This document shows, in pieces, positions 526 to 52,700 of a stretch of 64,000 nucleotides of DNA (positions are counted from its first letter, which is position 1; every line of letters starts with the position of its first letter). The notes under the pieces were generated by a model. That model saw nothing but the letters and a program-made list of their open reading frames with translations. It had not been told where the DNA came from and made no database searches. A program made the position numbers and the translations under genes. The stretch is from Girardia tigrina. Taxonomy: Eukaryota. The stretch covers positions 14,382 through 78,381 of the forward strand of contig MQRK01254223.1 in the NCBI GenBank assembly GCA_001938485.1, given 5' to 3'.

Positions 526-1215
526 ACACATAAAAACACATTTTAAAAAACATTTTTATTATCAAAGACAATTAATTTCAGCGGTACAACCGTCATCGTC
601 ATGCCATAAAGAAAATAGGAATTCTAGACCGGATTATTGAAAAAAAGCAGTGATTACACAATCAAGGAATAATTGTGTCATCTAAAAACACTCAATATGG
701 TTGTCGAAAGACCTCTTTGTACATTAATATTAGGATTTGAAGATCTTATATATAACTCTTCGTAGATAACTCGTTCCCAATAATTATTAAACTAAGCACA
801 CAGAATTTTAAAATTATTTATGTTAATATTTTCTTTCAATTTGTAAATTTTTCTGTTCAGCAATATTACTTTCACGCACATTACGGCCTGTTTTTGAATT
901 CTCCAACAGAGATGATGAGACATCTCTCCAATGTATGTGGCATTGCATTCATTACATATACATTTATATACGAAATCCGAAAACAATCCCAATGTGGTTA
1001 GAGATTATTACAAAAAACCTTTTAGATTTTATATATTTAAGATCTTTAGATCATAATGTGCAAACGGGTATCTCGACAACCTTATTTAGTGTTTTGACTA
1101 TATAAGCAGATTTAAAATTCATAATTTCTTGTTGACCTGACGATGACGATTATACCGCTGAAATTAATTGTTTTTCATAATAATATTTTTCATAAAATGA
1201 CGTCTTTATGTGTTG
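526..1215 (-). mobile_element. Penelope-like element remnant: GIY-YIG fragment between inverted pLTR-like repeats (cassette 1)
   Basis: ORF 792..992 has VYKCICNECNATYIGEMSHHLCWRI, the PLE GIY-YIG pattern. About 526-750 is the reverse complement of about 1035-1215, and both arms carry a hammerhead-like motif. Confidence 0.8.
1132..1172 (+). ncRNA. Minimal type I hammerhead-like motif in a pLTR (mirror copy at 567-606, minus strand)
   Basis: gac-CTGACGA-t-gacgattataccgct-GAAA-ttaatt-gt. Core intact, palindromic stem III segment, weak stem II. Confidence 0.55.
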
Positions 1216-2139
1216 AAAAAGTCAATACTTGTTTCATCTAATTGTTAAAATAAACTGTTAATGTTCATTTATGCAATTCAAATTTCTATTAGACTTAAAA
1301 TAATAAAGTATTTCTCATTTTCTGATAAGAAACAAATTCTATTATGTCCGAGAGCATAAATATTTCTTTTGTTGAAAGAAGAATAGAAAGAATCACAGAA
1401 ATCAAGTTCGAGAGGGGAAATGCAACAATAGAAGAAACTGAGTAAGTACCACAGTACAAAATGACTAACAACTCATAAAATCCTTCATTAATTTGATTTT
1501 CAATGGGAAAAGAATAAAAATTGAGAAAAGATTTTGTTAGAGGATTTTATCAAAAAAAAATAAAAAATATCTTTCATACCGACAAAAAAAACTATTAAAT
1601 CATCAACGATTCATAACACAAAATATTTCATTCTTTTACTTTCGAATTTTAGAACGATTTTCCTAAAAATATAATTTCTCAACCGCAAACAAATTCTAAA
1701 AAATACGAAATAATAAAAGGAAAACAATTTGTTTATTTTCAATCGTATTATTTATGCCAACTTGTTGAAGCAAAATTTATTTTATTTTTTTTTCTCGAAA
1801 TCGTCACAAACTATAAAAAGCGAATTTCTACTTTTTTAAAAATGGAGAGCAAAAATAAATTCTATTGAACGAATTTTATTTTTCTATAATTTTCATTTCA
1901 ATTATTATTATTTTTTTTAATTTTTTTGATCTTGAAAATAAATTTAACATAATTATGGGAATTTTAGATTTTTTTCTTATTTTTCTTTTTACATATTTTC
2001 TAATATATTTTTCTTGGATCTGTGCCAATTATTTTGTTTTTTTGGATGTGAAATATCGTTTAATGAGAGAGGAAGAAAATATATTTAATCAGATTTTATT
2101 ACTTTTGACAGATTTTTATTTATCGCATTTTATTATTAC

Positions 2140-2298
2140 CCGAATATGTTCTAAGCATCCTTCGATGTCATCAAGGAGGCCCAAATTCACTTTTGAGTTA
2201 ACCATAAACGTATTTATTGACTTGAGCAATAGAGCGATTTGATTAATCTTTTCCTGAGTCTTTTGGGAATCCGGGGAATACTCTTCCTCGCCGACTGT
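2140..2298 (-). CDS. Exon of the spectrin-repeat gene (TVGEEEYSPD...CLEHIR)
   Basis: tttcag acceptor, gtaata donor, 159 nt, phase 0/0; lies within ORF 2116..2331. Confidence 0.85.
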
Positions 2299-5200
2299 CT
2301 GAAAGAGAGTCGGGATTATAGCTTGTTTCAATCAACAATCATATATCAAACTCTTTCTTTGGCTTCAAAAAACCTGGCTTGAATCTCTTGAATTATCGGT
2401 TGTAAATTATCAAAACGAATGTCAAGACTTTGTCGAAGTCCGTTCGGTATTTTATTAATTAATTCTTCTAATAATCGAATGTCAGAATCGGTATAATGGG
2501 TCTTAATTCGTTCTAACAACTGGTCTGAAATCTAGAATAATAACAGATTACTGACTGACAATTTTCAGTAGTTTATTTTTTTTAATTATTTAAATAATTT
2601 TGATTTTATTGTTGATTATTTATATTTTTATTTTATATATTGATAAATTGATATTTTGGAAAATAAAAAAAAATATTGGTTATTATGTGATTCTGTTTTT
2701 CGAAAGAAAATTAATTTATGTTTAGGTTTATTTTATTTTATTTTGTAGAAAAAATTATATTTTTCATTTTTCTATTTTTTTTAATATTTTAGTTAATGAT
2801 ACCGAAAAAAACGAATATATTTTGTGATTATAATATCCTCTAAACTGATAATTGTATTTTATGCTAATTGATCTCTTTTAGGTAAACCGGAATTAATGAC
2901 TTATTTGTTTAAATATTAAGAAATATAAATAAATATTGAAATCACGATTTCAACATAACATCGCCATTCTTTAATTTTTAATCATTTATTCGCGGAACTT
3001 TATTTTGTTTTTATATTTTACTATCAAAGTATGAAACAAGAAAGAAAAAAAAGAGAGAGAGTCACGTACCTTCACCTCTCCGCCTCAGTCAAGCGAAATC
3101 TGAACTGTTCATTTAATCAATAGCATATTCCCCTTAATTTTCTATGAAACATTCTCACTTAGAACGAGATTTATTATGCCTTGCTTATAAAAATTCTGAT
3201 CTTTAGAATAAAAAACTCTTGTATACCTTTTTTTCACTTACATAATGTTGCATCAATCTGAATAAATGAATATCATATGGTGCAATGTCCGGACTAAAGG
3301 GTAGATGAGGTAGAATTTCTCAGTCATACTCCTGGATTTTGCTGTAATTATTCTTTGCAACGTGCGGCCTTGCATTGTCGATCTGCAAATTATACCTTTC
3401 CTATTTGCTATTGCCGGATAGTTAATAGAGATTTGTTCTTTCAAGCGTGTCAATTGATGTAAATAAATAAATATAAATAAATACCAGGTTTCAGCAGTTC
3501 AAAGTGAATAATCCCATTTATTCCCCATCACATGCATAACAGAACTTTTTGTCCATGAATGTTGGATTTTCGAGTTGACAATCAAGCTTGATAAGGTGAT
3601 AACCAGTCCCTTCGTCTTTTATGATTATCAAACATCACCAACTTTTCGTCTTCAGTGACTTTTCTTTCCAGAAACGAATCATTGTTCTGTTTGGAAAGCT
3701 TCGGATCTTCTTCGACTACAATGCGAAGAGCTTCATCATCCACAGCTGATCTACGGCCCGGCCCGGGTTCATATTTTAAGCTGAAATTACCGATTCTAAA
3801 TTTGGAGAACCATCTTTAGTACTTCCTCTCATCCAACGTTCCAGGATAAATCTTATTGATTTTTCTTACTGTATTCGAAGCATTTTTTTCCTTTTCGATA
3901 TTCATAGAGAATACAATGTCGCAAATGCTCTTCCTACACAATTTTCGCTGCAATTTCCGTATTGCTTGGTAAAATTTTACGGTTCTTATTATAAAATAAA
4001 GAAGAGATGCTCAACTAACAAAAACGTATAAAACAAAAATGTGCTTCTAAAATTAGGTGGTCTACAGTTAGTTACAGTCAGTATACAAAAATCCAACGTG
4101 CAATATAAAATGACCTAATAAATTGGGTAGTTATAATAATTATAATCATACTTATTTATATTTTTTTATTTTTATTGTCTATATAAAAATCCTTTATTAC
4201 AAAGTTAAACAAAACACAATTAATTTTATATTGCTAACACCTTCACAAATGTAAGGTATAATTTTAATTTAATCCTTTTTTTTGTAAATAGAAGTTACAA
4301 AACAATAATTATTAGTTTCATACTTGATAGTTTTGTAAATGTTTTATTTCGTCAAAAATATTCTCCAGTCTCTTCAGCTGATCCTGAATGTGATGATATT
4401 GTACCTTTATTTCACTGAGTTCATTAGTTTTAAGGTATATAATGTTCTTCAGGTCCTGATATTTGACAAGCAATTGAGAGTTTGACTCGTCGGTTATCTG
4501 TGAGGATAATTCAGCAGTGATTGAATTGCTTTCACTACTAGAATGTTTATCCAAGCAAATCGATATTTGTGCCATTCTTTCCAAAGCTTCCTTTTTTACT
4601 TTCTAAATAAAGTATTATTTTACATTTGTTTTCTTGTATTTAAGAAATAAACTAATCAAATTATTGTTTTTATTCAAGAAAGAAATTATGTTAAAAATAA
4701 GATTTCCCGTGATAAAATAGTAAAATATATGAAAAATGATAACTGGAAAATTTGTTTACCGTGATCTCAGTAATCTTATCCTCAAGTTCTCCAATGGAAT
4801 CAAAATCGTTTGTAGATATTTGTGAAATAGTTTCACTTGTCAAATTGACCCAACTACTCAGATTTCCTGCTAAAACGGTGGCAGCTCCATCAATCATGGT
4901 TGATAATTCTTCACTCGAATCTCCGGATGTCGTTTCATAATCATCGTTTGGTAAACTGTCTTGCGAGCTGTGAACAGAATTTGCATTAAGATCTAACTCG
5001 GACGACTGAGACTGTTTGAGCTCATTACTGAAACGAGATTATCATATTTGATAAATCAAGCAGAAAATCAATTAAATTTTCCTCAAGCTACACTTTTAAA
5101 TCAGTAATATATTCATTATAATAATAGTTTATAAATTAATAATAATAAATAATTTATTTATAATTATATTCTATTTCATAATATTCTTATTGTCGAACAA

Positions 5201-7680
5201 TATAAAAAACATTTCTCATTCAAATGACAACAAAATTCGTTAAATTCGAAATTTTTTTATTATTGTCGACTACTTGATCATTAATTACAGGAAAATTAAA
5301 ACGAAACAGTAATTTTAAAAATCACAGTTTTTCTGACCACTCGCTCTGATTGGTTAACCAATCAGATCGCGTATACATTCAACCTGATCAATTCGGTCTA
5401 ATATCCGGCACAAACGAATCGATTGATAATAATGCACCATTATTCTCGGCATTACAATTTGATTACTGAGTCACATGATTCATTGAATAATTATTATTTA
5501 AGTATGTATGAAAGCATCAAAGCAGCGATAAACAATCAATAAATGTTTATCCAATAAAACGATAACGATTCTGATTTGAATTGTCTTTGGGCAGGAGTAT
5601 ATTGAAATATAACATTAAAAATAACCAATTAGGTTTATGCAAAAGAAATGTCGTTTTTTAACTGTATTAAATACATTAAAAACGACATTTCTTTTGCATC
5701 AACCTAATACATAATAATATTTAAATTTATATTGCGAGTAAGAAAACTATTGAACTATAAATTACATTTTACCAATATAATATTGGATTGGATTTTTCTT
5801 TGAACGTTTAAAAATATTGTAAAAAAATGTTAGTAAAGATATTTTATTTCATTGTGGTTTTAATAATTTTTACTAAAAAGATCTTAAAAATATAACAAAA
5901 AAGAATTTCTAAATTTTGAAGTGGATAAGATTGAACAACATGATGATTCGTTTGTCACAATTTACAGATGCAAGTCACCATGTACAAATATTAAAGTGGG
6001 AACATTTTTGAATATTAATAGAGGACAAAAGAATAAAAGATATTAAAAAATAAAAGTGATGCAAATAGTCGAAATGGCAAATGGGACAAATTGAAAAGAA
6101 ATAGAATAGATCGGTTAAAGCACCAATTCATAATACTTTTAGGGAGGTTGCATGCCTGCCCAGATATTCTAAACGAAATATTGTGAAATTATACTAAGAA
6201 ATGGATTTCCTTTCATCCCCCTGTGATGGAACACATAAGAGCGTGAACAGAATCAGATGCATTTAGAATGTTAGAAACTAAAATCAAAGCTTTTTTTGCA
6301 CCTCTACAAGATGTGGGTTGAACAAGAATAGAATGTAAATATTATTTAATTTTATGTTCATAAATAAACTGGAAAAAACATTTTTCGTTCAATTATTTTT
6401 GTTTTTTTACATTATAAATTGTTTTTACAAAAGATTTTTAAAGAAATCGTTTTATTATTTTGAATCATTGTTGCAGAAAAGAGATAAATAAAAAATCGTT
6501 ATACGTGTATAGAAAATAGCAAATAAATGATGTTAAGTATTTTTTGATCAGAAATAATAATGAATTATATATTATTATTAATTTTATTTAATTTTGTTCT
6601 ATTGAAGATCTGAACTTAATCAAAGAAATCCTAAATACAGTCAAAAGATTTGTTTTAAAAAACATAATAATATAAATAAATATAAATTCCAAATGTATCT
6701 GAATGATTCAATGTAAGAGTCAGAAGATTGTAAGAAAAGAATATGATGTATTGTTTCTGGATAAAAGAAAGAATTTGACTTGCAGGATTAGAACCGTTTC
6801 GCCGAATGTAATTGCTGAATTTACAATTTTGCGATGATTGTAAAATAACTTATTAGCAATGTATTATTTGCATACAATTCAAATTTTTATTTTGATTTAA
6901 AAAATTACTTTTTAAAGATACAATTAAGTTCATATGGAATACATGTATTAAATTTAATTTATAAAAAATATGTATATAAATATATAATAAACTCACTAAT
7001 TATTGGATATCTTTTCTTGGATTGTAATATCGGTATTATTTTCAAGGTAATATTGATCGAAAGAATCATCTTTTAAATTATCTTTTTCATCAGTTTTTTG
7101 AACATTCGGTTGTCGATTCATTTGGAGACAAATTGTATATCTTGATCTAAGATCAGATAAACGATCACGGAGAAAATCAGCATCAGTGTCGTTGCAGGAC
7201 ATGGACAAATTGTCGCCGTCTTGCTCCAGCAAAACCATTTTCTTCTCAAAGCCACTGAGATTTTTCTGAAATATATTTCAAATTAAAGACAAAAACAATG
7301 ATTAAAATATAAGTTATTAAATAAATGTTTAATTATAAAAATGTAACGATATAAATGAAAGGAATCCGATGACAAAATCAGTATAGTCATAAAAGTTTAC
7401 AAGACTCGATGTAAATTTATTTACTTTTAAGATATTTTGAAAAAGAATTATATAAGCAGATCTTTACAAATATTCCAAATTAGGGAGAGTAAAAATATAA
7501 AAAAGTATCCAGGAGTTCTAATCAGGAGCAAAAGTTGGCCATTAGTAATACTAAATTGATGATTCTGCAAACCAAAGATATTCTGCGAAAGAATAGGAAT
7601 GTGTGAATGATACAAAAAGTACTGAAATAAAGAATGAATTTCAATAAAACAGTAAATAGTTAAAAAAATTTATAAAAAAA

Positions 7681-7720
<40 letters not shown>

Positions 7721-9973
7721 ATAATATCATCATTAAACAAATATGATAATTATAATCTACTTCGAATGAAAAAATGATTGACTTGTTCTTCTAATATATT
7801 AATTTTTTTATTTCCATTATTTATATAATATCTCCTATGTTTTGTAATCATTTAAAATAACTATATTATCAAATTATTTGTGAGGAATGTATATATTTGT
7901 ATATAAATGTATATGTGTGCCTAATATATAATAAGTTGTTCGGAAGATCACATAATGCTTTAGAAATAATCGAAAATTTTATTGATTTTTGTCGAGATCA
8001 AACAATAAATATTCGCTTAGATCTGAGGGCGGATCAGACATAATTATGTGTAATAATTTTAATAAAATAACATTTAAAATTAATTAATTATCATATTGTG
8101 TTTTCTAACTCTCACAATTTGATTAAACAATGAAGAAATTTAAATTTTAATGAATTTTAAAATAAAAAAAATAATTGTAATACATTAAAATCTTTGATAA
8201 GAATGTTTTTGTAACCATTTATTGATTTGTAGCACCTAAATACTTCTACACCCATTGATCTGCAGTCATTTCAGTGTTAATTATAATATATAAAATATAT
8301 TGTAGAATTTCGTGATCGGATCAGCGGAGCCTGTGATCTTTAATTTAATCTAAAACAAATTCAATAACTATTTGTTTTTTTCTTTTTAATATAACTATTA
8401 GAAATTATAATATTACATGATTAAAAAATTGGATAACAATTTTACTGAAAATCAAAAAGGTTTATCAAATATTAATTTTTAATATATATTTGATATTATA
8501 TATATCTTAAAAATTTATATTTGATAAACCTTTTTGATTTTCAGTAAAATTGTTAACCAATTTTATAACTATATAAAATTAAAATTTTATATAGTTATAA
8601 TAATAATAGTTATAATTATAATTTAATAGTTATAATTTTTAATCCAAAAAGAAAAAAGAAATAGTTATTGAATTTGTTTTAGATTAAATTAAAGATCACA
8701 GATCCGATCACGAAATTCTACAATTGATGTTTCAACAGCACTTGAAAATATTTTACCGAAATATATCACAATAAATTTAGGATTTTCAAACCAAATTTTC
8801 CTTAGAATTTATTAAAAAATCCAAAATCATTTTTAAATTTATTAGTAATTTTGACTTTACATCAAGATTGTTGTCCAAATCAGATATTACTCTTACGAAA
8901 TACGATGATGATAATCTTATTGGAGGATGTACTTCAGTCCTCAGAATCATAAATATTCTGCAACTTGTGGGCGTGAAATCGCACATTTTGGCCTTGGGAA
9001 TAAAACTAGAAATTGATGTGTAATTTGAGACATGTGTATTTTAAATATTTATGATGGATCATTATTACTATCCATGTGTTCGAATATTAAAAACCCGGAG
9101 TTATAAATGTATTTTCTGTTACGACTTTTATATAGTTTTAGGAATAATTCTTAAAATAATCAAAAGAAGAATTACTTTAGGATTAATAATTGTTTTCATA
9201 AATAAGATATTATATTATTAAAAGAAATGATTATGTTTTTTAAACGGCTTTTTGAATGACGACAAGTTTTCCAGAAGAACAAACAATAATTTTGTTAAAT
9301 AATAAAAACATACAAGTATAAAATAAAATGTTTTATTTTGACTTTTATACATTTCTTCGCTAATTGAATACAAAATTTTGAATCAAAAATTATAAAGTGA
9401 ATTTAATTCTTTGTGTAATCCATAAAGACGTTAAGTAAGTTATTCTTACCTTCCAATGTCTGATAAAATTTAAGATATTTTTCTTAATACTCTTCTTACT
9501 CTTAGTAAATGAATAATCTGATAGCTACAGTTATCGTTCAATGTTCCTCTCATCTTCTCTGGTACCCAGCCAGTCTCTCACTTTGTCCCTTGAGATTAGG
9601 CTGTTACGTTCATTGAGTATAATTTATATTACATTTGAGTTCCAACAAGATTGTCGTATTTTCTTTAGTTTTATTCCCAGTATTAATTCCCAGTTTCAGT
9701 CTTTGTTAATCAATTATTACTAAATATTGTCAAATACAATGTCTTATTAAAAAGATATAAATTAACTTTCATTTAAGAAACTTTAAAATATTTTTCAAAG
9801 TATAACAAAAAATAATTTATGAAATTTAAACAAATTTTGGAAAAAAATTATTTGATGCTTTCTTTGGTTAAATTATATTAGTTATTTTTTTAAACAATTT
9901 TGGATTGGGAATATTTTCGTATTTACCAATTTTTCTAGTAATCAAAATATCTAAAAATGTGTCATTTAGTTTG

Positions 9974-10020
<47 letters not shown>

Positions 10021-11077
10021 TGTAAATTTTTCATAAAAAATCAAGCAATAACAGAAATATTAAAAAGAAGGTGATGATTGTTACTTGAATCAAGATCTAA
10101 AAAGGAAATGGTGGTTGTAGATGAATGAACAATAAAAATTAACTCAAAGATCCTATAACGTTCAGTATTGTCCGTTAATGAGACTTCAAATAGTCCGTGT
10201 TACATGCGACAACGAGAAATATCGCAATAATTTGCAAGCTGAGCAAAAACAGAAACGCTGTGAATTCTTGTGAAACGAATGAAAAGTTTTGTTGAGTATT
10301 CTTTGGATATTTTTTCTACTCACCGTAAAATATGACCGACAAAATCGCTTTTGTATCGAAAAAATGGAATAAATTTTCTATTAGAATTTCAGGGATAGGA
10401 CGAAATTATATGCTCGAGATTAAATGATGAATTTGGAATCGCATCCTTTTTTAACCTTTTTTTAAAATCAATCTTTATGGAATGCTGTTTTTACGAAAGT
10501 AATATTTTAGATTAGCTATGAGGTGATTTTTTAATTATCCATAATAATAATAATAATAATAGTTAGAATTGATAGGCACTCCATCATCCAGAACGTGCGA
10601 ATCCATATCAAAATATAGGAAAACTAATTTAACTTGAAAAATTAATTTGCAAGAAAAATTCCACCCAAAAAACAATGTCCAAAAAAATTGCTTACAATAA
10701 ACAAACAATTTTTTTATTATAATTAACTTTTATAATCAGTTACTTATAAATTTTAATTTGAGGAACAATCTTTTTCTAAAACTTGTTAATGTCAAACCGG
10801 AAAGTTTTAATTTTAATTTATTCTTAATTTACTTATAAAATTTAATTTAACTAATTATTCTATTCTTCATCTAATTATTAAATTTAACTCTCTATCTTAT
10901 TTAAATTTTAATTTACTTAATTTATTCTTATTTCTTTTTTCTTCAATTCTCGTCAATGTTATTCAAATAATCTCATCTTGCATTTCCACTCTAACTCACA
11001 AATTTTCTTCTGATGGTTTACTCCCTAACAATAATAATAATAATAATAATAATAATTATAATAATAATAATAATAAT

Positions 11078-11110
<33 letters not shown>

Positions 11111-14100: not shown

Positions 14101-17100
14101 CTTAAGTTCTAAATATTCGCAGATTATTGGAGAAAATAATTTGTGTTAAAAGAGCAAGTAGACTGCTGAATTTTAAAGCATCTGAACAAAGTCTTACGAC
14201 AATGAAATGTTAAGAAGGCCTTTTAAAATTACAAAAGAAAATGTTTTTGAGTTCTAAGACTTTAAATAAAGGATAGACAATTTCAGAGCTCTTTTGACAG
14301 CCTTAAACTTTGTAAAGAAATTGAAATCAAATTATTGCATAATATCGTCACTGCAGATAGAAAAAAATGCTCATTATAAATTATTGTGGTGTTCCAAAAA
14401 GTGAAAACTCTTCAGATAGTCAAGTTTGAAGAAATTGAAGAGTGGGATTTATATAGATTTCAGAAAAAAATGGAGAAACCGAAAAGAAGTTTATGTTTTT
14501 CATTCAAGCTAAAAGGGAAAAGAGACAAAGCCACAATGGATAAACATTAATATCTGGATGTTGCTCCAATCCACAAAATAGTTATGGTCATAATAACAAG
14601 GAAATTTCAAATCTCCCATACAGTCAACACATTGCTTCGATGGACTTTTTTGATGTTTTTCGACTTAAAAAAAACATTTGAAAGGCCGTTTATGTCAACC
14701 AGGGATAAATTTAAAAAAATCCTTCATTGTTTACATATTTAAAGCTTTATATGAGATTATGTCCCTTAAAAAATCTTCTATAGAATAAATCAAATATAAT
14801 GATTATTGATAAGTTTCAATCCGGATGAAAATATTTTAATAAAAACAAAATTCATCCATTACAAAATAAATTTAAAGACAATATATTAAGACGGATCAAC
14901 CCTCATCTTCAGGTTACTGATTAATTATTTAATTAACCTTTATATTAATTCAAAAATAAATATTATGTAATCGATTACACAAAATCACACTTAACAAAAA
15001 CTCTCAATAAGTTGGTTGAACATTGATTTTAGAGAATCGTGACCAAATTAATTAATATGTTCAGTTATAAATCTATTACACCTTTAACACTTTGTTCTTG
15101 TGAGGAATACTTTAAATTTGGTATGTTGAAATTGGTTTGTTGAATTTTGTATGTTGAGTTTAGTATTTGGAAATGTGTTTCTCCCACAACAGATGGAAAA
15201 ATGATATTTTGGATGTTCACAATAAATAATTATTCGAGTATAATTTGCATTTTAAAGTACAGTATAAGATATTTAAAAAACTTTAAAAATATTAAATCGT
15301 TTCAAATTTTCATATTAAAAATTTAAATAAAGTAAATAACTTTTAACTAAGTTTTAAATTAAATAAATGTTCCTTCTTTCAATGAAATATTTTTAAATAA
15401 AATTAATATGTAGATAAAATTATTACTAAAACTACAAAATTTGAACTTTAAAAATAAAATCTGAAAATAATGAAAAATTTGTTCGAATAATTGTTTATTA
15501 AAAAACATTAACTAAAATTTATCAATTTAGAACGATGTCAAATTACGAAAGCATTGCTGAGAGTTGTCCAAAAGACAATTCTAATTGTATTAAAAATTAA
15601 AGATCGTAAAGCTATGTTGGTGTTCTTAATATTTCTGATGTTGTTTATGAATATAAATGTAATGGATGCGATGCAACCTTGGAGTGACATGGTCGAAAAG
15701 AGAGTAAGAGTATTATTGCAGAACATAGAAAAAAATGTAAATGTGATGTTAATTTTGATAATGTCCAAATTCTGTGTAAGCATTTTGACAGTTATTGGGA
15801 GAGTGTCGTGTGAATCATTGTTAATTAGGTAACGTGGCCCTAAAATCAATGTTCAATCGGCAGTCTCAACCAGCTTATTGAGAATTTTTGAGAAATTATT
15901 ATTATTAACCTGAAGATGACGACGGTTGATCCGTCGAAAAATTTTGTCTATAAATATATTTTAAAATGGATGATTTTTTATATTGATATGAATTATTTAA
16001 ATAAATATAATTAAAAATTTTCTATCCGCAAAATGAAACATAAAATCAAGACTAATAACAATAAAATAATATAAATTATAATGTATTATCGAGGGATAAT
16101 TGATGAATCTGAAAGTGCTCCAGTTTCTGCTCAACTGTTTTGATTGATGAACTCGATGATTTTAATGAAAATTTTTGTGAATAAAACATTAAATAAATTG
16201 AAATAATTTTTCAAACATTATCAAATAAATAATAAAAAATTAAAAAAAAGATTTTTTAAAATTTATTTTTTTTAAATCATTTGATAAAATAGTAAATCAA
16301 AATTGTACTAAACCAATTTACAAAGATTTATTTTTGTGTTTTATATTATTTGTAATAACATAAAAATATGATAGTAATCCGGGAGATAGAATGACAAGAA
16401 AGTCGATTCACATTATATTTATATTAAAAATAAAATAATATTTTATTGTATTAAATTCGGATTTAATATTATTTATAAATAAAAGTAGTAAATAATTACT
16501 TTAAATGAGTCTGAAATTCGTTGTGATATTTTCCGAGTCGTTTCTTTTGGGCTTCTATGAGAAAATTGAGATTAATAGTGTCGTTGTTCTGATGCTCTAT
16601 TCCCGAAGCCATGTTATACTGAACCTCTGCAAGCATATGGGAACAATCAGCTAATTTATCGTCGATATCCTACAATTGTATAAATTTTATAAACAAAAAG
16701 AATATGTTCGGTCTACTTGTATTCTGTCGGCTAATTTGGATAAACAACCGCGACGACTGTCGTCGATATATATACGTACAGTGTTTAATCGTCGACCTAT
16801 TTCTTTCAGTTGTTCGCGAACCGTTTTCAGATTTTCCCGGTAATTCTCCTGAGAATTGATTATTTCTTGATTTAATAATTGTGAAACGGAATTATTGGAA
16901 TTGCTCTTCGTGATGTTGATATCTTGATTTCCGAGCCGGCCACATGAAGTCAGTCTCAATCGGTCTTTCTGTAGATTTACATTTAACTCTTCTTCAATTT
17001 GAGATATGAATCGAAGCGCTTTTATCCGTAACTTTTCAGATGGTTGAAGCTTTAAAAAAATAGTTTTTATAATCTTTAGAATAATCTTCAAAAATCTTTT

Positions 17101-17888
17101 ATTAAAATATGAACTCAGCTGAGAATATTTAATTGCATCAAAATGAGTTTTATAAAAAACATAAATTTAAAATAGATGTTATATATTTTATTACGGTAAA
17201 TAGATTTTCTACCAGTAACAACTTTTTTAAATATTCAGTTTTTATGTTAATTATTTTAATATCTTATTTCAAGTTATTTCTTAGAGTTTTAATTTGTTTG
17301 GAAAATATAATAAAAACAAAAAAGTGATTAGAATAGTTTTTTTGTTAAAATTTCGCTTGTAGAAAAAAATATGGAACGATTTACAACTTTTGATTCTGTA
17401 ATTTATTTTTTGAATATTTCATGTTTTGTTTAATAATTCAAAGACAAACCAAATAAGAATCTCAAGATATTTTATAATAATGCTTTTGACTTCCGAAAAT
17501 AGTCGTTTCATGTCGTAGAAACGACTTCAAAAGCATAATCAACCATCCACAAAACCTTGATGCGTAACGTTAGAATCAAACAAGATTACTACTAAAGTAA
17601 AAACAATCGTAAATTCTGCATCAATCGAGTTAAGAAGTCCACCATCACAAGGTTTTTATGTTTAAAGAAAGATAAACTTAACGAAAAGCAACTAAACATG
17701 AGTTTCATTCAATAAAAAGACTAGCGTTTGGTTGGACCACAAACGAGTATTTTTATTGGAAATATTTTTACCGAAAACAAAACTACTGTTTACGTAATTA
17801 TTACTGTTAGAAGACTTCAAGATTTTCATCGCAATTTATTCAAAAACAATATGATCTTCCAAAGAAGCTCGAATGAGGAATATCATCA

Positions 17889-17930
<42 letters not shown>

Positions 17931-20900: not shown

Positions 20901-23780
20901 ATTATTATTATTGAAAATATTCTATATCAAATAATATAGATAAATAATATTTCAGCCATAAAAAAATAATAATCGGAGATCAGTTTTAAATAATATCCAT
21001 TAAACAAAAACCCTACCAGAAATGTTGGAGATAAATGAAGAACGCGATATTGACTCAAATATCAGGTGAGTACATGGATGAATAATGGTATGCCTTAATG
21101 AATCTAACCGATAATAATGCCATAAATTACAGTAATAATAGCGGTAATCGATTATATAATCTTATAAAGTCTTCTGTTTTCTTCTTTTCCTTATTCTTTT
21201 TTTAATATAAATTCTATGGATATTAGAATGAATCATTGAATCAAATGCAACCAAAATGTTCTAAGAAGTAACAACAAAAATCGAATTTTTGAATCTTCAG
21301 AAATGATAATGAATTTTATTTTGTTAAGACGGAATATTCGCTATATAGAGCGATACTTTACGTTTTTTGAAGAGTTCTATATTTTTAATCAATGTTGCTT
21401 ACTTAATCTAATGCAAATACAATTAATTATAAATTCCAGAAATATTATAATTCTGCTTACATAAAAATTACCACAAAAAATAATACATGTCTGAAAACAT
21501 AAGTCAAATCATAACTATTTTTCGTCTTTCCATAACTGATTTTAAATTATCATTTTGTGACATAAAGCTTTTAAAAAGTGCTTGTACATTTATATATCAC
21601 GAAACTATAATTGCATATATTAATTTTATACAAAAAAGATTTATGCAATTATTATTATTATATATGATTAAGCAAATTCAAAGCATCAGTAAATTGGAAT
21701 AAGTGACGCATTATGGGAGAGGATTATATTAATATTTTATAATTATTAAGTTTTCCTATTTGTCTTGAAAATTCTGCCTTTCATATGCATAAAAGAGTAT
21801 TATAAATGTAATTACATTTGTTACTAAAGTACAAGCTAAAATGCCAAAATAATTCCCAATTGATTTCGTATCAAAAGTACTGTTTATAATAAATATGCCA
21901 GGGTAATGTGAGCAAGCATCAAATAGAGATCCATTAAAGGAACTTTGCTGCTAATTTTTTAATCTCATTCCAATAATTTTGAGTCACAGAATCTAATACG
22001 CATTGGAATTGTGTCTACAAAATAAATATTGATAATTCCCCAACAATTATTATCCGGAACGCCTCGTTAAGAAAATATTGATTGAAATTCTGTATTCTCA
22101 TAAATGCATTAACAACTCGCGGCCACAAAACATCAATTTTCATGAAGAAAAATAGAATGTTTGTTTTACAAAATTGACGCTTATTAAAGAGAGATGTCCC
22201 ATCGAGCTACGTGGCGCAGGCCACAATCGAGCCCCCTCATACTCCCTACACTCTGCTCCACTCCATTCTATCAAGTCCTAATTAATAAATACTTTTATTT
22301 ACCAAAGTAAAGCATTGTAACTAAAAGACTTAGTCGTTTTTCTAAAATAAATAAATAAATATATAACAAGCAAATTATTTAATTATTTTTTTTCTGCTAG
22401 TTAAGAATTTCCTGTGCTTTTATTTTCTTTTGAAATTAATTTAACTTGATAAGTTATTTTTGCAAAATTATAATTTAATATTGTCAATAATTTCAGGGGT
22501 TAAATAAAATTATATTTTGTAGTTAATTTCGTGAGTTACGTATTTTAATAATAAATCTAAAATATATATTATTTATCAAATATTATTTACATATATATAC
22601 ATAACGAAAAACAAAATTGATCCATTAAAATATATATTTTTTGACAAAATATTTCGACGGATCAATCCGACACCTTCAGGTCACTGATTAATTATTAATT
22701 GACCTGTATATAAATGTAAAAATAGTGATTATGTTATCGATTGCATGAAGTCACACTAATAAGAAATTCTCAATAAGGTAAGACGATTTTTTTTGTCTTA
22801 AGGGCTCGTTCAAAAAAATACATAACACATAGGGGGAGGGGGTCTATGAAAGTGTGATATTTTGTGACAAGGGGTCGGGGGTGTCTAAATATTTGTTAAA
22901 TTACAAAAATGATTATTATTGTAATCTTTTTTTCAAAAAAACAATAAATAATATAATGCTTGATTTAACATTAGAATTAAATTAATTATGTAAATTTTAT
23001 TACACGATGTATTACTTTTAATGTCACTATAATTCCCTTCAAATTGGGGAAAATGGATAAGAAATAAATAAAATATTGTAGTTTGTATATTTTTGGTTTT
23101 TATGATTTGTGACGTCACACCTAGAGAGGGGTCTTATGAAAGTGTGTCACTTTGTGACAAGGGGGAGGGGGATCTAAATATCCAAATTTTTGCGTTATGT
23201 TTTTTTACGAACAAGCCCTAATGTAATTTGTTCTTTATTTAAACTCATATATGTCATAAATGAATTTTAATAATTCATAATTTAAAAATTTAAATAATCT
23301 CAATTGATAAATATACCCGAATTCATAGATTTCTGCTTAATATTATTGTTAGGAAGCTAAAAGACTAACTGAATGTATTTGAAAACTATTAGCTAATTAT
23401 GTATTTAAATATAAATAGGTGATTTGATTAATAATAATTAATACTAATCTATTTATAATAATTGATTAATAACCAAGCAGAAAGTAACAATGACGATCAA
23501 TATATCACAGAACAGGAAATAATTGTAGAAGGAATAAGTTACTATCACAAATTTCATTGTTAATGTAGAATATGTAGATTTGCAGGAAAATAATTATGAT
23601 GATCCTTGGCCCGATGAAAATGAGGTGAATGCAAGATTTGGCAGTGATTTTATATATAATTTTAGAGTTCGAAATCATTTTAACTTGAATGAATGAAGCG
23701 ATCGAATAAAAATGATAGAGCTGATTTTTTTCTGGTTTAAGGATTATATGATAATCGTATCACTGTTGAAATGTGCCTTG

Positions 23781-23828
<48 letters not shown>

Positions 23829-25584
23829 CTATAATATAAATATAAATATAATTTTTTCTAAATTTTTAATTTCTGTTATTGTAATACGGAAATAAATTTC
23901 TGGAAAACCAAATGGTAAAAGCAGTATTCCTGCAGTTACTGATATATGTTATGTTGAAAAAGGATAATGAACAGTTACTGTACCATTGATGTATTCTTCA
24001 ATACATCTCATAGTGATTCCATATCTACTAACATAATAGACCGATTTATGACTAGAAGCATTAATTTTATGAACAGAATGAGAATGTTGAGCAAAAAAAG
24101 TTGAGAATTTAAAAATGGAAAATTTTTCCAAGGAGGGAGGAAGATGATTCTTTCAAAATAATCGAACACTAATAAATAGGTATACACATTTATTTTAAAT
24201 GTCTATTTATCCATCCACACATTTCTTTTAATTAAAGAAATAGCAGTTTTCTAATCTAAATAGTAATTTGAGAAGAACAAATAAAATATTTAAAAATCAC
24301 ACAAAAAACTTCAATGAACAAATTATGCAAATAAATCGGTAAAGAGTATTAATATTTATAATATTTATAATTCAAAACTTCAAAGGTTAACAAGAAAAAA
24401 AATCTAATAATATGACTAAAAATAATTTTAATTATATTTTATTTTATTTTATAGAAATTTAGAAAAATTGCTTTTGAATAATAATAATTCTTTAAAAACA
24501 TAATTATAAATAAATATATCGAATTATATTACATTATGTATTAATTTACGTAAAATGTTTATGTCGTTGAACAGGAAATAAATGGAAATATATTTATTTG
24601 AATGAATGACAGAAACAATTTATTAAAATCTTGTTTCATTTAATGAAGATTGAAAATGGTATAATTTACATAATGCAGTTTACATATAATGTTGGTACAA
24701 AACAAATCTTTGAATTAGGTTTTTTTAGAGAAGGAGTCTCGTTTGAATTTTGTACTAATGCATTAATTCCATCTACGATGAAACTGTAAATGCATATTTC
24801 TCAGATTGAGAATTCTTGAAAAACAAAAAGTATTTTATTTTAATTTTCCGGACATCGAAATCATTAACACACAGAAAACAGTTCAGTCTTAAGTATTCAA
24901 TACAAGATCGTTCATAGAAGAGTAAAATATATAAACACGGGATAAAAATAAGACGACGTGTTTCGAGATAACACTCATTATCAGATCAATCCACACCGTG
25001 AATACTGGAATAAATAATAATTAAGAAACGTTTTACCAATAAATTATTGAATTAAAATAAATTTATTTCATTTTTCTTAAAAATTAGAAAAGATTTTATT
25101 TTTTGACTTATGTATGTAAATATATAGTGAACATTAATTGGTACTTTTTGAAAATATATTTGTTAAAGCACTTTTAAAAATCGTTGACTATTTTTCGATC
25201 AGCAAATGCGATCATTTTCAGTAACTTATTAATTTGATAAATTTTAGTGTATTTGAAACCGAAAAGAAATTTCTACTCATATTATGAGAGGTTGTTTTGT
25301 GAATCATTGCTGATCAGACATTACAGGAACTTGATTAACATCCAAATGGGAAAAGTAATGCAGCGTCAATATTAAATATTTTCAATTAATATATATTAAT
25401 AGAAAATTAATAAACAAATAATAGTAAATGAATAAATAATAATTATCGAAAAGTATACTATTTTATTGGTTCCCATATATACTAAAATTTATTAAAATAT
25501 TAAGTTGCTGAAGATGATCAAATTTGCAGATCGAAACTTATTTTGCGAAAATCTTTTAAAAAGTAATTTAATAAATTTATATTG

Positions 25585-25627
<43 letters not shown>

Positions 25628-29651: not shown

Positions 29652-29691
<40 letters not shown>

Positions 29692-32350: not shown

Positions 32351-32392
<42 letters not shown>

Positions 32393-35300
32393 GATTAATT
32401 ACTATTTATGTAGTTTGAAAACTATTACATCATACGTCTCAAAAACATGCTTTTTTTTCTTCTTTTTTAAAAAAATATTTTAATGATATTTAAAAAATAT
32501 TTAAAAAAACTTTAATATGAATCACCTTGCACGTTTAAGCATGGTTTATGATGCTTTATTAACAATGCTTCGGCAATAATCCTTTCATAATTTGTGTCAA
32601 TAAACGTGCAAGGTGATTCATCTAATCATATTAAAGTTTTTTAAATATCATTAAAATATTTTTTTAAAAAAAAGAAGAAAAAAAGCATGTTTTTGAGACG
32701 TATGATATATATATATATATATATATTCCACCTACTATCGGTATACTAATACTAAAAGAAAATAATTTAAAAGTTAAAGGAGACAGTGAAATATGAGATG
32801 GTCTAACTTGAATTCTGTCTAATTCCTCCAGTTGATCCGAAGTGTCAGCATAGGCACTCAGTTCGCGCAGTCGGTGATCAATGTAGAATCTTTGTTCTTT
32901 GAATATCTAAAATAAAATTAATTACATTGTTATTACATTCAATACACTTTTTATTGTCTCTCTTTCAATGACTGTCGTTATTAAATCAGCTTTTTTGCAT
33001 GCATTATTCTACAGACGATTAAAATTAGAATATCCGTTCACGTTTTTTTTGAAATAGTAAAATTTTATTAAAATATTTTCAATGTTATATTTTTTAAAAA
33101 TAGATTTTTCAAATTTTTATTCACAATTTAATAAAGAGAATAATATTTTTTATTTTCATTAATATTTGTTCAATTGAGAAAATTCTCTTTTAAATTTTGT
33201 ATATTAAAAAAATTATTTCTTGTAAACTTTATTAACAAATAATAAACAAGTCTTTTATTAACATTATATTTTATTTTAAATTATGGAAATAAAACAAACT
33301 TCAAAATATATTTTAGATATTTATTTATTTTCTTTTAAAAATTTCTAAATAATAATATTACATTAAAAATAAGTTAAAATAATTTAAAATCTAAAAAAAG
33401 ACAGATTAGCTTCTTAAAATCAATGTAAAAAAATTAATAATAAATTTATTTTTCTATATAATAAGATCATAATTAATTATTTTCTTTCAAATTTATGGAA
33501 GAAAATATTTAAAAAAATAAAAAAAAACTTTTTTTTTAAAAATGAAAGTAGTAAAAAGTTTTTCTGTAGAAAATTTTATTATAAAATTATATACTTACAA
33601 GTCACAGTTAATATAAATGCGAAAATACTTTTTTCGTATTTTCATCGCAAAAGAAACTCAAAAAAATAAAAATTATTGAAAAACGATTTCATCGTTTTAT
33701 TTCTTATTTGAAGTAAATAATGATAAATATTCTTCCGAAAATAATAAATATCTCTTTTAATGATAGAAAACTGTCAATACGATTTCTCTACCGATGTAAT
33801 TAAATTTCTTCAGGAATTTAATATTCTCTGTAAATTTCTTTTGTCATATTAAATATAATCGAATTTTATAAAAAAGATATATATTTATATAAAGCATACT
33901 TTTGAGAGCATAAAATAAGAATAAGTACATATTAAGTGGTAAAGATATTTGATTTAATAAATGTAAAACATGTACCAATTTTACTTCGACAAAAGATATT
34001 TCATAAGACAAATTCTTATGTATATAAATATAATAAGTTGGAACGATAGTTTTTTCAGTTATTTAAAAAATTCTTTAATTTAATTTTGTCATTTATATAT
34101 TTAATATAATCTGGATTTTATATATTATATATTCTTAGTAGTGTTTTTATATATTATTTGCATTGTATAGTCCCTTCTGTAAAACGTTATTGAATTTAGA
34201 AAACAAGTGAAAATGTCAAAAATAGCGTGATAAAATCCGTAGATTGATTTTCCAAAAAAGGCGTCTAAAATTTAAACTCGCAACACCAGAGATTCCACCA
34301 AAGAGCATATTTACGATGGTATTCCAAATTCTGCTCCGGTAAAACGAATGGTAAAAACAAAAAGAACTCCGGACGAGCTCTACGCCGTTTGATTGAAGCG
34401 GAGCAGACCCATACAGACAACTAAACTCAAAACTTCCACTACAATCATTATTTGGAACCTTCAAAAAATGAACAAGGAAAATAAACGTGGTCAACAGGTC
34501 TAACACTTTTTTAAAGAAATGCAAAAAAGCGGTCAATTAACGACTGTTCCTGACAATTGCACAAATTCAGCCGTTGTAGATTACAACGGATTTTGACGTG
34601 AGATGAGAAGTGGGTTGTATACGATAATCAGAAATACAAAAATCAATGGCTGAGGCAAGGTAAACTTAGAAAACGGCCACCTTGAAGTAATCCTCATCGA
34701 AAAAAATTTGATTTTGTGCGTTTGGTCAATCGCATAGGTACAGGTTCACTAAAAACTCCTTCCCCGTGCTCAAACCATCATTTCTAAAGCTTACTGCTCC
34801 CAATTATATCGTGTCCATGCCTCTTTGAGTGTTTGTGGTATCAGCACTGCTTGTGTTTGTTTTCAACTAGACAACGCCACACCTTAAAGATAAACACGTT
34901 AAGCAGACCCTTCAAAAGTTTTTCGACCTGAAAACTCCAAATTTTTTACCTACGCAGAATTTTCTTATTGTAGCCTCGTTGGAAAATAATAATTAAAATT
35001 AATGACGATTACAATAATGTAAACGACTCATTGTTATTGTAAAAAAATACTTTTAATAAAATGTTAATTTACTGACAAAACTTTCCAACCTATTAATATA
35101 ATTTATATATGATAAATAAACGATAAGACAAATAACATTTATATATAAATTATTATATATATATATATATATATTATCAACAAAAATTTTTTTTCTTTTA
35201 TATTTAATGTAATTAATATTACTTGATTTGTTTGGTGCTTAAAATCCCTGGAGATTATGAACATGTTTTATATTTTTTTCACAGATTTTGGAATAATTTC

Positions 35301-38300: not shown

Positions 38301-41300
38301 TGGCACTTTTTAGAGTTTTTTTATTGTTTCTTTTTTAGAAGCAGATTATAATCAGAAATGCTTTTCGAATCTTATCAAAGACTTTAAAAAATCTGTTTTG
38401 GATGATGATTTGATTTCGCTAATGTTAGAAGGGTTTTACTTTTTGTTACTTCCGGAAACGCTCCCCTGTGTTTTCTATTCGAGAACTACATGCACATGTT
38501 CGTTTTGAAAGAACTTTTCTGATAATTGATGAGGTACCCAAATTTCAAGTCAAAGAACGGAACCAAGCTTGTATATGTGATGATATGCTCTGCTGTGGAG
38601 AATCTGCAACAAATTCGATAGCTCTTTGGTGGTAAATGGTCACACAATGTGTCTTAAATTAACTTTTTTTTCATTTATACTAATTATTTTTTTTCTAAAG
38701 AAAAAAGTATTTAATAAAACAAAATATATATCTTAATTATACAAGAGAAAAAACGTGATAAATTTTTGATATAATCTTATTAAAAATAATAATAAAAATA
38801 AATATAAAAATGCTACGAAATTTCCAAAAAACCAAATATTTATTCAAATACTATAATAAAAAATATGCATAATTCAAATTATATAATATATTTTTAACAT
38901 ATTACTGTAAAAATTGATTTTTTTGGTTTTGTTTTAATTTCTAAAGCCATCCTCAAATAACGTAAAATTAATATTTATAAAATTATAAATAATTTAATAT
39001 TTGTTTTCGTCGTTTTTTATTCTCAAAAAAATCTGAGTCTGCTTGAGTTAATTTTTTTTCAGTGAATAAAAAATAAATCTATCAAAGAAAAAAAAATCTG
39101 TAAAACTGTTTAATGATTAACCGAGTTTTTCCCCTCAGATTTATCCAAACCAACCCCAACAATTCTAGTTATTAAACTAAATTATCTGAAAATTATTCGT
39201 TTTTTCCCTCCATCATTTCTCGTCGAGAGATTGGCAATTATGAGACATCGTAAAAATTCGTCTAATTAGAAGATGTCTTTAAAAATTTAAACCAAGTAAT
39301 GTAAGTTTAATTTTTCACAGTCTATCACATTTTAATTGCTAAAAAGAATTTACAGTGTTGCTCCAAACTAAACTAATTTTATTTGTTAAATCAATCAAAA
39401 TGAGAAAGAAGAAATAAAGAAGAAAAATCCATTAAAATAATTTTATAAAAATAATACTATTCATTGTAGATAATATATTTTTATTTCATTAATTAAATGT
39501 TTGTTTTCTAAAGTACAAATTAATTATACAAAGATCTAACAAAAATTCTTAGAAAAGAATAATCTTCTTCAACTGTATTGACGTCTTATTACTTGTTGAA
39601 TCGGATGATGACGGTTGATCAGCCGAAATTAATAACAATATATTGGGTTGAGTAAAACGTATTTTCGTTTTTTGCAGATAAATGACAATAAGAGACAGAT
39701 TCGCATATAAAACGTCCATTTATTTGAAGAAACTATTATTGCATTTTGTGAAAGTTATTGAAAGATTAAATTCTCAAGTTGTGTTTTAAGATGCCATTTG
39801 TTTAATTAGATAAAATAATTATCATTTTTGTAAGTGAAAGAGTGTGTCAAAGTCCGTTTTCTAAATTTCGTGCTGATGATACCTCACGTCAAGATTGTGA
39901 GCGTTCTGGCCGACCAGTGGTTGAGGATGATCAAATCAAGACATTTGTTGAAAACAATCCACGATACACGACTCTGGAATTTGCAGAAAAAGTCAAAGTA
40001 TCCAAAAATATAGTTGTGAATCGTTTGCAAGCTCTGGAAAACTTAATTCAGCACAATATTTGGATACCTCATATTTTAAGTGAAAAAAAAACTTAATGGA
40101 CCGCGTCTATTTGTGACTCGTTGATGAAAAGAAACAAACATGTGCTATTTCTGAAACATATGGTAACATATGATGAAAAAAAGGTTGTTCTCCTTAAAAT
40201 AAAGCGTAACCGGTCATGGAAAAAAGCGAGGTGAATCTCCTAAAACTATAGCAAAAAGAAATATTCATACCAAAAAGCCATGTTGTGTCTGTAGGTGGGA
40301 TTTTGAAGGTGTGGTTTATTACGAATTGCTTTCTCCAATCGGGATTACTAATTCCTCTAAATATAGAGCACAATTGGATTCATTGAAGGCAGCAATCAAT
40401 GTAAAGTGGTCAGAACTAGCTAATCATTATTTTTGCACAGAAACCAAAAACGTTCTGGGAGGATGGAATCCTCAATTTACCATCACAATGGCTGAAAGTT
40501 ATTATTCAAAATGGAGCATATTTAATATACTACAAATACTTTTCTATGAAAATTGGTTTCAACTATTTTTTACTGAAAAATATGAAATTACTTTTTGCTC
40601 AACCCAATATTATGATGAACATTTTATAGGTTTACAAACTAACTAATCTCATTATTTTAATATTTATATGAAAAGAATAATATTTGAATTTATTGTGTGA
40701 TGTTTCAAATATTTTTTTGTTAAGTAAAAAGTTGTATGATTTATGTTTTATGGTGCAATTTGATATTTCTTCCTCTCTAAAAGAATGGATAAAGGATGTG
40801 ATGGACATATAAACTTTAAAAACGTTTTATTTCTTAAATATACTTTTCTAAATATGCATTATGTATATATCATATTTGAATTTGTTTAAATAATTAATCA
40901 AACTATAAAATATAAATAAAATATAATTTCAAAATCATTACAACATATTAAACGACAGTAATACTTTAGAGAATATCAAAATTTGATATTAAAACGTCAT
41001 CCATTAAGTACTTATTATTTATTATTATAAATGATTATAGTAATGCTAGTAATAATATTAATTATGAAAATATCAAAATATTGGGTGGAAATAAAATATT
41101 GGCATAAACAAAATCATAAAACAATGTGACACAAAAAACAACTGCACTAATAAAGTATAAATGGATGGCACAACATTGTAAAGTGCGAAATTGATAATTT
41201 ATAGAATAATACCAACAATGTTTGAGAGGGTTGGTTGTAACATTTGTCCCTTCCCTAGCCCCCAATGTCATGTCTAGGGGCATCCATAAACCACCAATTT

Positions 41301-46691: not shown

Positions 46692-46731
<40 letters not shown>

Positions 46732-49700: not shown

Positions 49701-52700
49701 AAAACTGAAAAGATACTTATAGTCGTGTCGTACATATTTACAATCAACATAGTTGTCGACCAATGAATGGACACAAGTGACTAAAGAGGAAAAGTTACGG
49801 AATTGAGTACTTTGATAAGGAAATTTTTTATAAAAGGATTTTTAATTATGTATAAAAAAAATTAATGAATTCTGAAAATAACCAACAATTTGCATATAAT
49901 TATCTTTAATAATGCTTTTGCTTTGGGAGATTCGTTATTAAATAATAATTAATTGGTATATAAGCAGGAAATCCGAATCTCTGATTTGTCAATTGTAATT
50001 GCTGAACACACTTAATTGAATAGAAATAGATCGATATCATAAATGAGTCACCAATAATTGTGTGTGTATGCATGTATATGTGTTAATACACACCAATCAA
50101 TTTCAAATTTGTCATTTATTTTAACACACTTTTTAAATATTTACGTTTTATTCCGTTATAATTAATATTTCGTTCATTAAATCATTTTTCGATTTCCAAA
50201 AGAATGTTTTGTGACTTCTTTATTGAACCTTAAAAGTGTGATTCGTCCATAGAAAACATCTATATAAATCGTTACCCAAATATTTAATATTATAAATTTT
50301 CACGAAATTCTTTTTGAAAAGTAGTGAAATAATTTATAATATATAAAATAAGATAATGTAGACAAATGAAGTTGTACAAATAGTGTACTATATTACCTTT
50401 TTCCTCTTTTGCTACCGTTTATTTCTGTTCAATTTTATTAAAAATTAAAAAAAATATTATCTGATAATTCTTGTATACATATTTTTTAAATATTAAATAA
50501 AATATAAACAAATTCCTTTCTTTTGTGTTAAAATGTTTTTCTTGAAATGAGGGAATATTTATTATTGTACCCAGACTCTTTCAGTTTTCCATTACTATTA
50601 TCAAATTGAAAAATGCAAATACATTCATTTTAAAATATTGGTAAAAGCAATATAATTAATAATATTTCATTTACTTTTCAAGACGCTTCTTTTTTTATGA
50701 ACGTTAAGGAATGTATTATTATTAAACTAAAATTCTTTAAAAGGAATACAAAAGAAATTAACTTCTATATTATATCATCTGTTACATTGGGATAATATGT
50801 AGTTAATTATATTCTTTCTTCACTTGTTTCTTGAAAAGATAATTAGATTAAAATTCATTCTTTTACGTATTATATGAATACAATTATATATTCTTAAATA
50901 AAATAGAAAAAAATTGTGTCTTTAGATTTACTTCATGAACTTCTTTTAAATATTTTTTAATTAATAAATTTTCTCTTCTTTGACAGAAATTCATCGAACA
51001 AAAAACCTTTTTGATTAATTAGATACATAATATAACATCAAGGCATAATTAACATTTACTTATGTGTTAATAATTTTATAATGCAAAATTTTCATATTAA
51101 ATGTTTTTTCATGATATAATTATTTATAGTTTTATAATATATCTTTTTCCGAGGTCTTTTTCCGGTCTCCCTTAGAAATTACTCTTTATTATTTACTTTT
51201 AAAATTTAACTTTTATCAGATTAGTAAATTTTCATTAATTTTAAAAATGACAATTCTGTTCGAATGATCATTTATCGCAAATACCATAAAGCACAAATTT
51301 TCAAATTAGTTGGAAGAATCACAATTCCAATTTCAGGACACTCAAATAAACGCGCCACATCCATACACAATTTGAAATATTCCTTACAATCACTAATTTG
51401 GGTTTTGAGATGACCATTTTTCTCTCTAATGTACAAGTTTTTCCACCCGTGATAATTAAATTTATAAAACAGATTAGCAATCGCTCAATAAATCGTTTTC
51501 GATTTATTAGGGAGAAGCTTTGAACTTGATCATGTGTTACTTTGTAAAAAAAGAATCTCTTCTGTTTCAAAGGAAGAGTGTTCTGTTTTACAGACAGGCT
51601 ATGAATAATTAATTATTTTTCAATATATATATATATATATATATATTAATATCGTTTTGAAAAAGGCTCAATCGTAATTTCGATAAAAGAAAACAAAAAC
51701 GCAAGTTATCAATAATTTTATTTCGTAAAACTAGTTTAGCTTTTACAGGCATCGTTAGTTAAAATGAATATTTAAACAAAATTACAAGTCATTAAAATGG
51801 TTTTCTGACTGTTACACCATAATAATCCTTGTATATTGGAGAAACACATCGTCGTCTCCGAAATAGAATAGCAAAACATCATCAATTGAGAAGAAACAGC
51901 TTCATTCTCATATATATATATATATAATTTTCGTGATCGTGAAAGAGTAAATTTTGAAAAAGAATTCACTTTTGAGTAAAAATTTTGATACAAATTTCGA
52001 GCGTAGTATCACTGAGGTATTATCTATTTAACATTTCAAACCATGCTTAAATATACAAAGTGATTTATCTAAACACGTTAAAGTTTTTTAAACATATGGA
52101 AATTCTTTATGTTGTAACAGTCAGAAAATCATTTAAAGCACTTGTAATTTTTTTTAAATATTCATTTTAACTAACGATTCTTGTAAAGGCGAAACTAGTT
52201 TTACGAAATAAAATTATTGATAAATGGCATTTTTGTTTTCTTTTATATATATATATATATATATATCAGCAGCGTAGCCAGGATTGCAGAGGGGGGGGTG
52301 GAAAAAAATTCCTGAAAGATCTAGCAATCTTAAATATAAACTTGGTGGCAAAAATAACAAGAAAGAAATAATATTTATTTATTTTTATTTCTTTATAATT
52401 ACATGTCCAGCCGACGCTTTCCTTTGCGGAACTCGTGAATAAAATCTTCAAACGATACTTCTATGTCACGATGAATGCTCAAAAACATTAATCCATTGAG
52501 TCTTTCCTCTCCTGTCGTATTTCTGTCATCGGTTTTGAGTTGTTTCATCTTATTGAATGATCGTTCGATATCAGCAGTCGTTACAAGAATCACATTGTAA
52601 ATTTTCAGTAATGTAAAAACATTAATGTAAAAACTGGGGAGTCCCCAGTTTTCGGCCCCGCAATCGAGCCCGATAACTGTGGGAGTATGGTGGTAGCTAA

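Follow-up and report, generated by a model that had tools for sequence, protein, structure and literature searches.

A 64,000-nt stretch of the Girardia tigrina genome (hereafter the window; GC content 26%) contains four cassettes, C1 to C4, in which two pieces of the same Penelope-like element (PLE) face each other as inverted arms. The arms are 79% (C1), 75% (C3) and 91% (C4) identical in self-BLAST, and those of C2 74–80% identical (80% in self-BLAST). Each cassette comprises a main piece, made up of the endonuclease end, 3' UTR and hammerhead of a PLE, and a shorter inverted copy that has the same 3' end (Table 1). The pieces meet at tight junctions, with an overlap of ~13 nt in C1, a gap of 2 nt in C2 and an overlap of 3 nt in C4. 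A tail of 30–40 nt is present on a single arm of each cassette, the main arm in C1 and the inverted arm in C2, C3 and C4. Because this PLE tail adds 30–40 nt on one arm, the outer limits lie at ~488, 14803, 25124 and 51650. A search for TSDs turned up no clean one at any of the four sites; a (TA)n stretch surrounds C4 and terminates C3.

Table 1. PLE-derived cassettes and associated elements in the window, with strand where assigned.
Feature	Position	Strand	Remarks
C1 main piece, 5'-truncated PLE 3' end	488..1046	-	GIY-YIG region 681-1015, 3' UTR/pLTR, tail to ~488
C1 inverted shorter 3' end	1032..1220	+	internal deletion; no tail; ~13-nt overlap with main piece
C1 minimal hammerhead	566..606	-	C3 position mutated; stem II mismatch
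C1 minimal hammerhead	1133..1173	+	complete core; stem II mismatched
C2 inverted 3' end, with tail	14803..15051	-	hammerhead 14876-14916, GAAA lost
C2 main piece, GIY-YIG region	15054..15985	+	split by solo LTR; ~60-nt deletion upstream of hammerhead; tailless
C2 minimal hammerhead	15906..15949	+	complete core; 3-nt stem II duplication; one stem I mismatch; best-preserved arm
533-bp high-copy insertion inside C2, likely solo LTR	15099..15631		TG...TA ends; 5-bp TSD, 4/5 matching here
Solo C2-family 3' end	22568..22777	-	decayed hammerhead; no partner arm
C3 inverted 3' end, with tail	25124..25274	-	hammerhead 25183-25225: G8 mutated, palindrome broken
C3 main piece, endonuclease C-terminus and pLTR	25268..25586	+	(TA)n at end; hammerhead 25504-25546: core complete, palindrome broken
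Fifth cassette, fifth PLE family, inverted layout	32392..32709	-	missed in earlier note; both arms stop short of the family's hammerhead
C4 inverted 3' end, with tail	51650..51826	-	hammerhead 51724-51762: G5 and G12 mutated
C4 main piece, GIY-YIG region and pLTR	51824..52246	+	AAT overlap at junction; (TA)n target; hammerhead 52167-52204: G5 mutated

The interiors of C1, C2, C3 and C4 match the endonuclease end of PLE family copies in tblastn searches with family-copy peptides (E = 6e-33, 3e-39, 2e-15 and 2e-18, respectively), and the same type of search found no RT sequence inside the four cassettes. Pfam recognised GIY-YIG, or any other relevant family, in none of seven window fragments. 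An earlier note on this DNA had described four inverted PLE-derived cassettes of several families with one shared layout, each with a GIY-YIG C-terminal fragment and none with an RT remnant. The arm identities and the endonuclease matches at all four sites bear this description out, and C1 to C4 represent four PLE families. Its cassette limits marked the right sites but missed the tail, leaving one outer edge of each 30–40 nt too short, and its upper size of 1.1 kb does not hold: the PLE part of C2 is ~0.65 kb, and the rest is the unrelated 533-bp insertion.

Searches of the 1.43-Gb assembly returned 3722 candidates for C1, 2458 for C2, 1544 for C3 and 962 for C4, from which the best 40 were scored and 30 fetched in each case; the C2 search used the right part of the cassette, the whole being swamped by the solo LTR. 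Among the fetched loci, family copies have a common 3' end and scattered 5' ends, the latter at about -500 to -1430 in the C1 family, -370 to -955 in C2 and -400 to -1560 in C4, with lower limits that derive partly from reference length. Longer copies of the C1, C2 and C3 families match Pfam GIY-YIG (E = 2e-4, 6e-5 and 4e-4), the C2 match alone passing the curated cut-off, and one C1-family copy (L086) matches RVT_1 (E = 1e-8). Pfam gave no match for four of eight family peptides, among them all three from the C4 family. In that family a YIG motif, as well as RT-like motifs in three copies (L016, L017 and L027), can be recognised by eye, and the C4 endonuclease, given to Pfam as window fragments, had no match. 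The fetched C2 and C3 copies end short of the RT core. Several traits of EN+ PLEs are found here: a C-terminal GIY-YIG, an upstream RT in longer members, a minimal hammerhead in the pLTR and the optional 30–40 bp tail at one end. Judged by sequence, the cassettes are truncated copies of EN+ PLEs that comprise part of the GIY-YIG region and the pLTR.

Hammerhead parsing shows that every family has its own 8-nt palindrome with matching stems. Fully intact motifs occur in 9 of 26 parsed main arms in the C1 family, 18 of 28 in C2, 1 of 18 in C3 and 6 of 29 in C4, with 0, 2, 9 and 1 main arms, respectively, left unparsed. In the window, the tight pattern CTGANGAT-N10-22-GAAANNNNTT is seen three times against 0.14 expected (none of 100 shuffles reached three), and a loose hammerhead pattern 11 times against 4.6 expected. 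The full CUGANGA and GAAA core is present in three of the eight cassette arms (1137, 15910 and 25508), and none of the eight combines an intact core, stem II, palindrome, UH and stem I. The earlier note had read CTGANGA-T-stem II-GAAA in every arm; outside those three the motifs are decayed homologues. The palindrome that it saw after most motifs corresponds to the family-specific one, but both C3 palindromes are broken, and the Infernal search that it had proposed, performed as an Rfam scan of the window, found no hammerhead at E<=10. Several variants recur in both arms of a cassette, namely the TTGAT loop of C2, a G5-to-A change in C4 and a stem II change in C1 that is absent from all 25 other main arms; the C1 and C4 changes fit a mutated template or arm-to-arm conversion. 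From the parsed motifs, the minimal type I hammerhead is a normal pLTR component, genuine in each family and decayed in this window.

The window contains further PLE material. The fifth cassette has (TA)n on its flanks and a junction unlike those of two other inserts, L199 and L200. Its family is hammerhead-bearing, and the cassette itself has no motif, so the inverted layout is independent of ribozyme survival. An older, C3-family-like PLE endonuclease remnant adjoins C4 at 51304–51605, with opposed pieces on the minus (51304–51505) and plus (51525–51605) strands. Another locus, L188, carries two intact-looking hammerheads on the same strand, spaced 546 nt apart in a partial direct tandem; such a pair could undergo dimer cleavage. 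The same family includes L200, a younger insert with two arms.

The window also holds other elements. The 533-bp insertion inside C2 is 92–95% identical to 39 other scored copies (best 40 of 7140 candidates), and 16 of 29 other copies show a perfect 5-bp TSD by eye. Its TG...TA ends and 5-bp TSDs make it likely to be a solo LTR with no relation to the PLE. A large fold-back of ~426 bp at 8299–8724, 72% self-complementary overall, has no PLE peptide match, and short hairpins or MITE-like inverted repeats lie at 5606–5733, which has a mir-548 score under the gathering threshold, and at 52778–52921. A tRNA at 54406–54487 (Rfam, 60 bits) reads as Ser-like, given a UGA anticodon and a long variable arm, and the neighbouring 54043–55003 is related to 37305–37883. 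Reading frames at 56550–57200 (minus) and 40203–40646 (plus) resemble what we take to be candidate remnants of Tc1/mariner transposases.

We compared the junctions of inverted pieces across family copies. Adjacent inverted pieces were found at 8 of 26 distinct C1 loci, 7 of 30 C2 loci and 8 of 30 C4 loci, counted after dropping duplicates (L064, L074, L079, L080, L096, L097 and L113) and leaving out non-adjacent inverted arms (e.g. L070 and L141) as well as L138, where the inverted piece stops short of the 3' end and the junction is unlike the others. The C3 family, whose inverted pieces sit at differing places, had diverged too far to be entered in the breakpoint table. Of 77 within-family pairs among these 23 adjacent inversions, only one agrees to within 10 nt at both junction coordinates, and the next closest pair is 47 nt apart. 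The close pair consists of L002 and window C4, whose junctions differ by no more than 6 nt and which carry the tail on the same arm. By identity to window C4, L002 comes 28th among 29 copies, and the two have 4 of 45 derived bases in common, a number that five other copies exceed. Its sequence is best read as that of an independent event at a microhomology spot.

Searches with junction-spanning queries of 91–139 nt point the same way. In each of the four, none of the 39 other scored loci covers both sides of the junction, where scoring extended to the best 40 of 176–7140 candidates per genome search; the C4 query omitted the known near match L002, so low-copy old siblings could escape such searches. 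Four matches to the C2 query run ~10 nt beyond the junction and stop short of the conserved forward part. The BLAST for identical junctions that the earlier note had suggested thus returned no second spanning copy, and among the best 40 candidates per search we did not find the many copies with shared ends and a shared junction that mark a SINE/MITE-like element. A private breakpoint in every copy, which the note had taken as the sign of ordinary dead-on-arrival insertions, is what the junction data give, apart from the one near-coincident pair, whose members are not close relatives. Private junctions, shared 3' ends and scattered 5' ends favour the first of the two alternatives it had offered, independent truncation-inversion products of PLEs. 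We conclude, with a probability of about 0.92, that each cassette is the 5'-truncated 3' end of an EN+ PLE plus a shorter inverted copy, formed in one independent dead-on-arrival insertion.

The biochemistry of an anole PLE protein suggests how such inserts could arise. This protein cleaves and extends both strands, and the tail lies between its two RT start sites (PMC11167929). By analogy, the RT-endonuclease would nick each strand of a target that is AT-rich or consists of (TA)n, and reverse transcription of the element RNA would be primed at both nicks. Of the two start sites, one cDNA would use the one that takes in the tail and the other cDNA the one that leaves it out; both would stop early and then be joined, often through an overlap of a few bases. 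We infer the double-priming step from the activity of the anole protein on both strands, and we lean towards it without great confidence. The hammerhead appears twice in each cassette only because the motif lies within ~100 nt of the element 3' end, and hammerhead mutants of the anole element still insert (PMC11167929).

The tail occurs on one arm only in all 13 two-armed inserts in which both arms could be read by eye (eight on the main arm, five on the inverted arm; 6 of 19 inserts were unparsed and L082 was partly read), and likewise in C3. The start sites reported in PMC11167929 show no strand difference and so leave this pattern unexplained. We tentatively suggest that one tail per insert, on either arm, is a strict rule, which might reflect the coupled action of a dimeric PLE enzyme that primes from the distal start on one strand and the proximal start on the other; we would sooner doubt than defend this extension. 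TSDs of 13–17 bp flank 5 of the 19 two-armed family inserts (L063, L078, L122, L135 and L141).

The inversion might instead come from self-priming or fold-back on the antisense template, a model set out in PMC3846280, or from template switching, with no double-nick priming in an otherwise identical insertion. The near-perfect fold-back junctions of L008 (-539/-532) and L199 (-137/-136) and the overlap at the C1 junction are what this route would leave, but most two-armed inserts are very unequal, their junctions joining positions that are separated by hundreds of bases in the element, and the tail is found on either arm. We regard it as a possible but minority explanation.

One feature of C2 is not explained by a simple single insertion. 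Its ORF part is 95–97% identical to young copies (L122–L160), and its arms are only 74% identical to each other and ~80% to the family. C2, and perhaps C1, could therefore be composites, of two insertions from related subfamilies or of one insertion with later conversion of the interior. A 13-nt deletion in the left arm of C2 is also common to five of nine loci fetched by the junction query, but it sits between short direct repeats and may recur. The 2-nt gap at the junction, the tail on one arm only and the TTGAT loop variant in both arms all speak for a single event, and we consider a composite origin unlikely. The departures of the arms from the family majority are mostly private (in C4, 17 and 10 in the two arms and 3 in common), although such counts are inflated where an arm is tailless.

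The layout has a simple consequence for RNA. Because a cassette has its two hammerheads on opposite strands, a transcript includes one hammerhead and one antisense copy. We predicted minimum free energy folds for the four cassettes, each on both strands: of the 38–44 nucleotides of the hammerhead, 30–39 are paired to the opposite arm and none form local pairs; whole-cassette folds of C1, C3 and C4 are very stable, with z-scores of -15 to -19 against 20 shuffles. According to these models, the sense hammerhead in a read-through RNA would be buried in the hairpin and would probably fail to cleave. The earlier note had foreseen a hairpin with a ribozyme motif available from either strand; the stable fold and the single sense motif per transcript agree with it, but the motif is predicted to be paired rather than available.

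It is very unlikely that the host retains the hairpins as a source of double-stranded RNA directed against PLE families. Antisense small RNAs from rotifer Penelope copies have been reported (PMC3846280) and the folds are stable, but stability is a trivial outcome of inversion, and arms that have diverged to 75–91% identity through mostly private changes show no sign of selection for pairing. Least probable of all is the second alternative of the earlier note, an amplifying, non-autonomous, ribozyme-bounded mini-PLE moved in trans as a unit: the L002 junction, the reported mobilisation of unrelated sequence by pLTRs in cis (PMC3846280) and reports of non-autonomous Chlamys elements (PMC8557442) lend it some plausibility, but the junctions are private among the best 40 candidates of each search, all eight hammerheads are decayed with the sense motif predicted to be paired to the far arm, and motifs on opposite strands, one per transcript, are unable to cut both ends of one RNA, whereas a unit excised at both ends requires direct repeats, as in retrozymes (10.64898/2026.07.22.740005).

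The layout of an inverted truncated copy with a tail on one arm, a TSD and hammerheads on opposite strands already appears in accounts of PLEs (PMC4209133, PMC8557442, PMC3846280). Arkhipova et al. 2013 (PMC3846280) report inverted pLTRs, a tail, TSDs and microhomology in Adineta vaga Pen2a/Pen2, and Cervera and De la Pena 2014 (PMC4209133) report pairs of minimal hammerheads in Schistosoma that lie on opposite strands at a distance of ~100–700 bp and whose dimers show low activity in vitro. Like the 5'-truncated EN+ PLE insertions of PMC8557442 and PMC3846280, the cassettes have a C-terminal GIY-YIG followed by the pLTR, an inverted shorter copy at the 5' end, a 30–40 bp tail on one arm, family TSDs, short junction overlaps and microsatellite or AT-rich targets. 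Unlike those insertions, the window copies are old, 0.3–0.7 kb long and without recognisable TSDs at the four sites, and the family TSDs of 13–17 bp compare with 8–10 bp in rotifer PLEs (PMC3846280). Stem II is 4–5 bp here and 7–8 bp in the Schistosoma hammerheads described in PMC4209133, and the window motifs are decayed. The cassettes resemble non-LTR retrozymes (10.64898/2026.07.22.740005; PMC7229834) in carrying PLE-related type I hammerheads and in being short non-coding repeats. In retrozymes the repeats form direct tandems and the hammerheads share a strand, whereas the cassettes are inverted and single, have motifs on opposite strands and keep ORF remnants.

The cassettes are real, rightly assigned to PLEs, and ordinary examples of a described insertion layout. 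As found they are of little weight, though useful for repeat annotation of the Girardia tigrina genome. An amplifying inverted mini-PLE, which none of the titles and abstracts found in literature searches describes, would if true represent a novel type of non-autonomous element equipped with a ribozyme; the junction data speak against it. The remaining value of the cassettes is mechanistic. How PLEs form inverted ends and a one-sided tail is termed undefined in Craig et al. 2021 (PMC8557442), and the thousands of inserts in this genome could test how both are formed. If the one-tail rule is true, these abundant stubs would allow the second-strand step of PLE integration to be read out across the genome.
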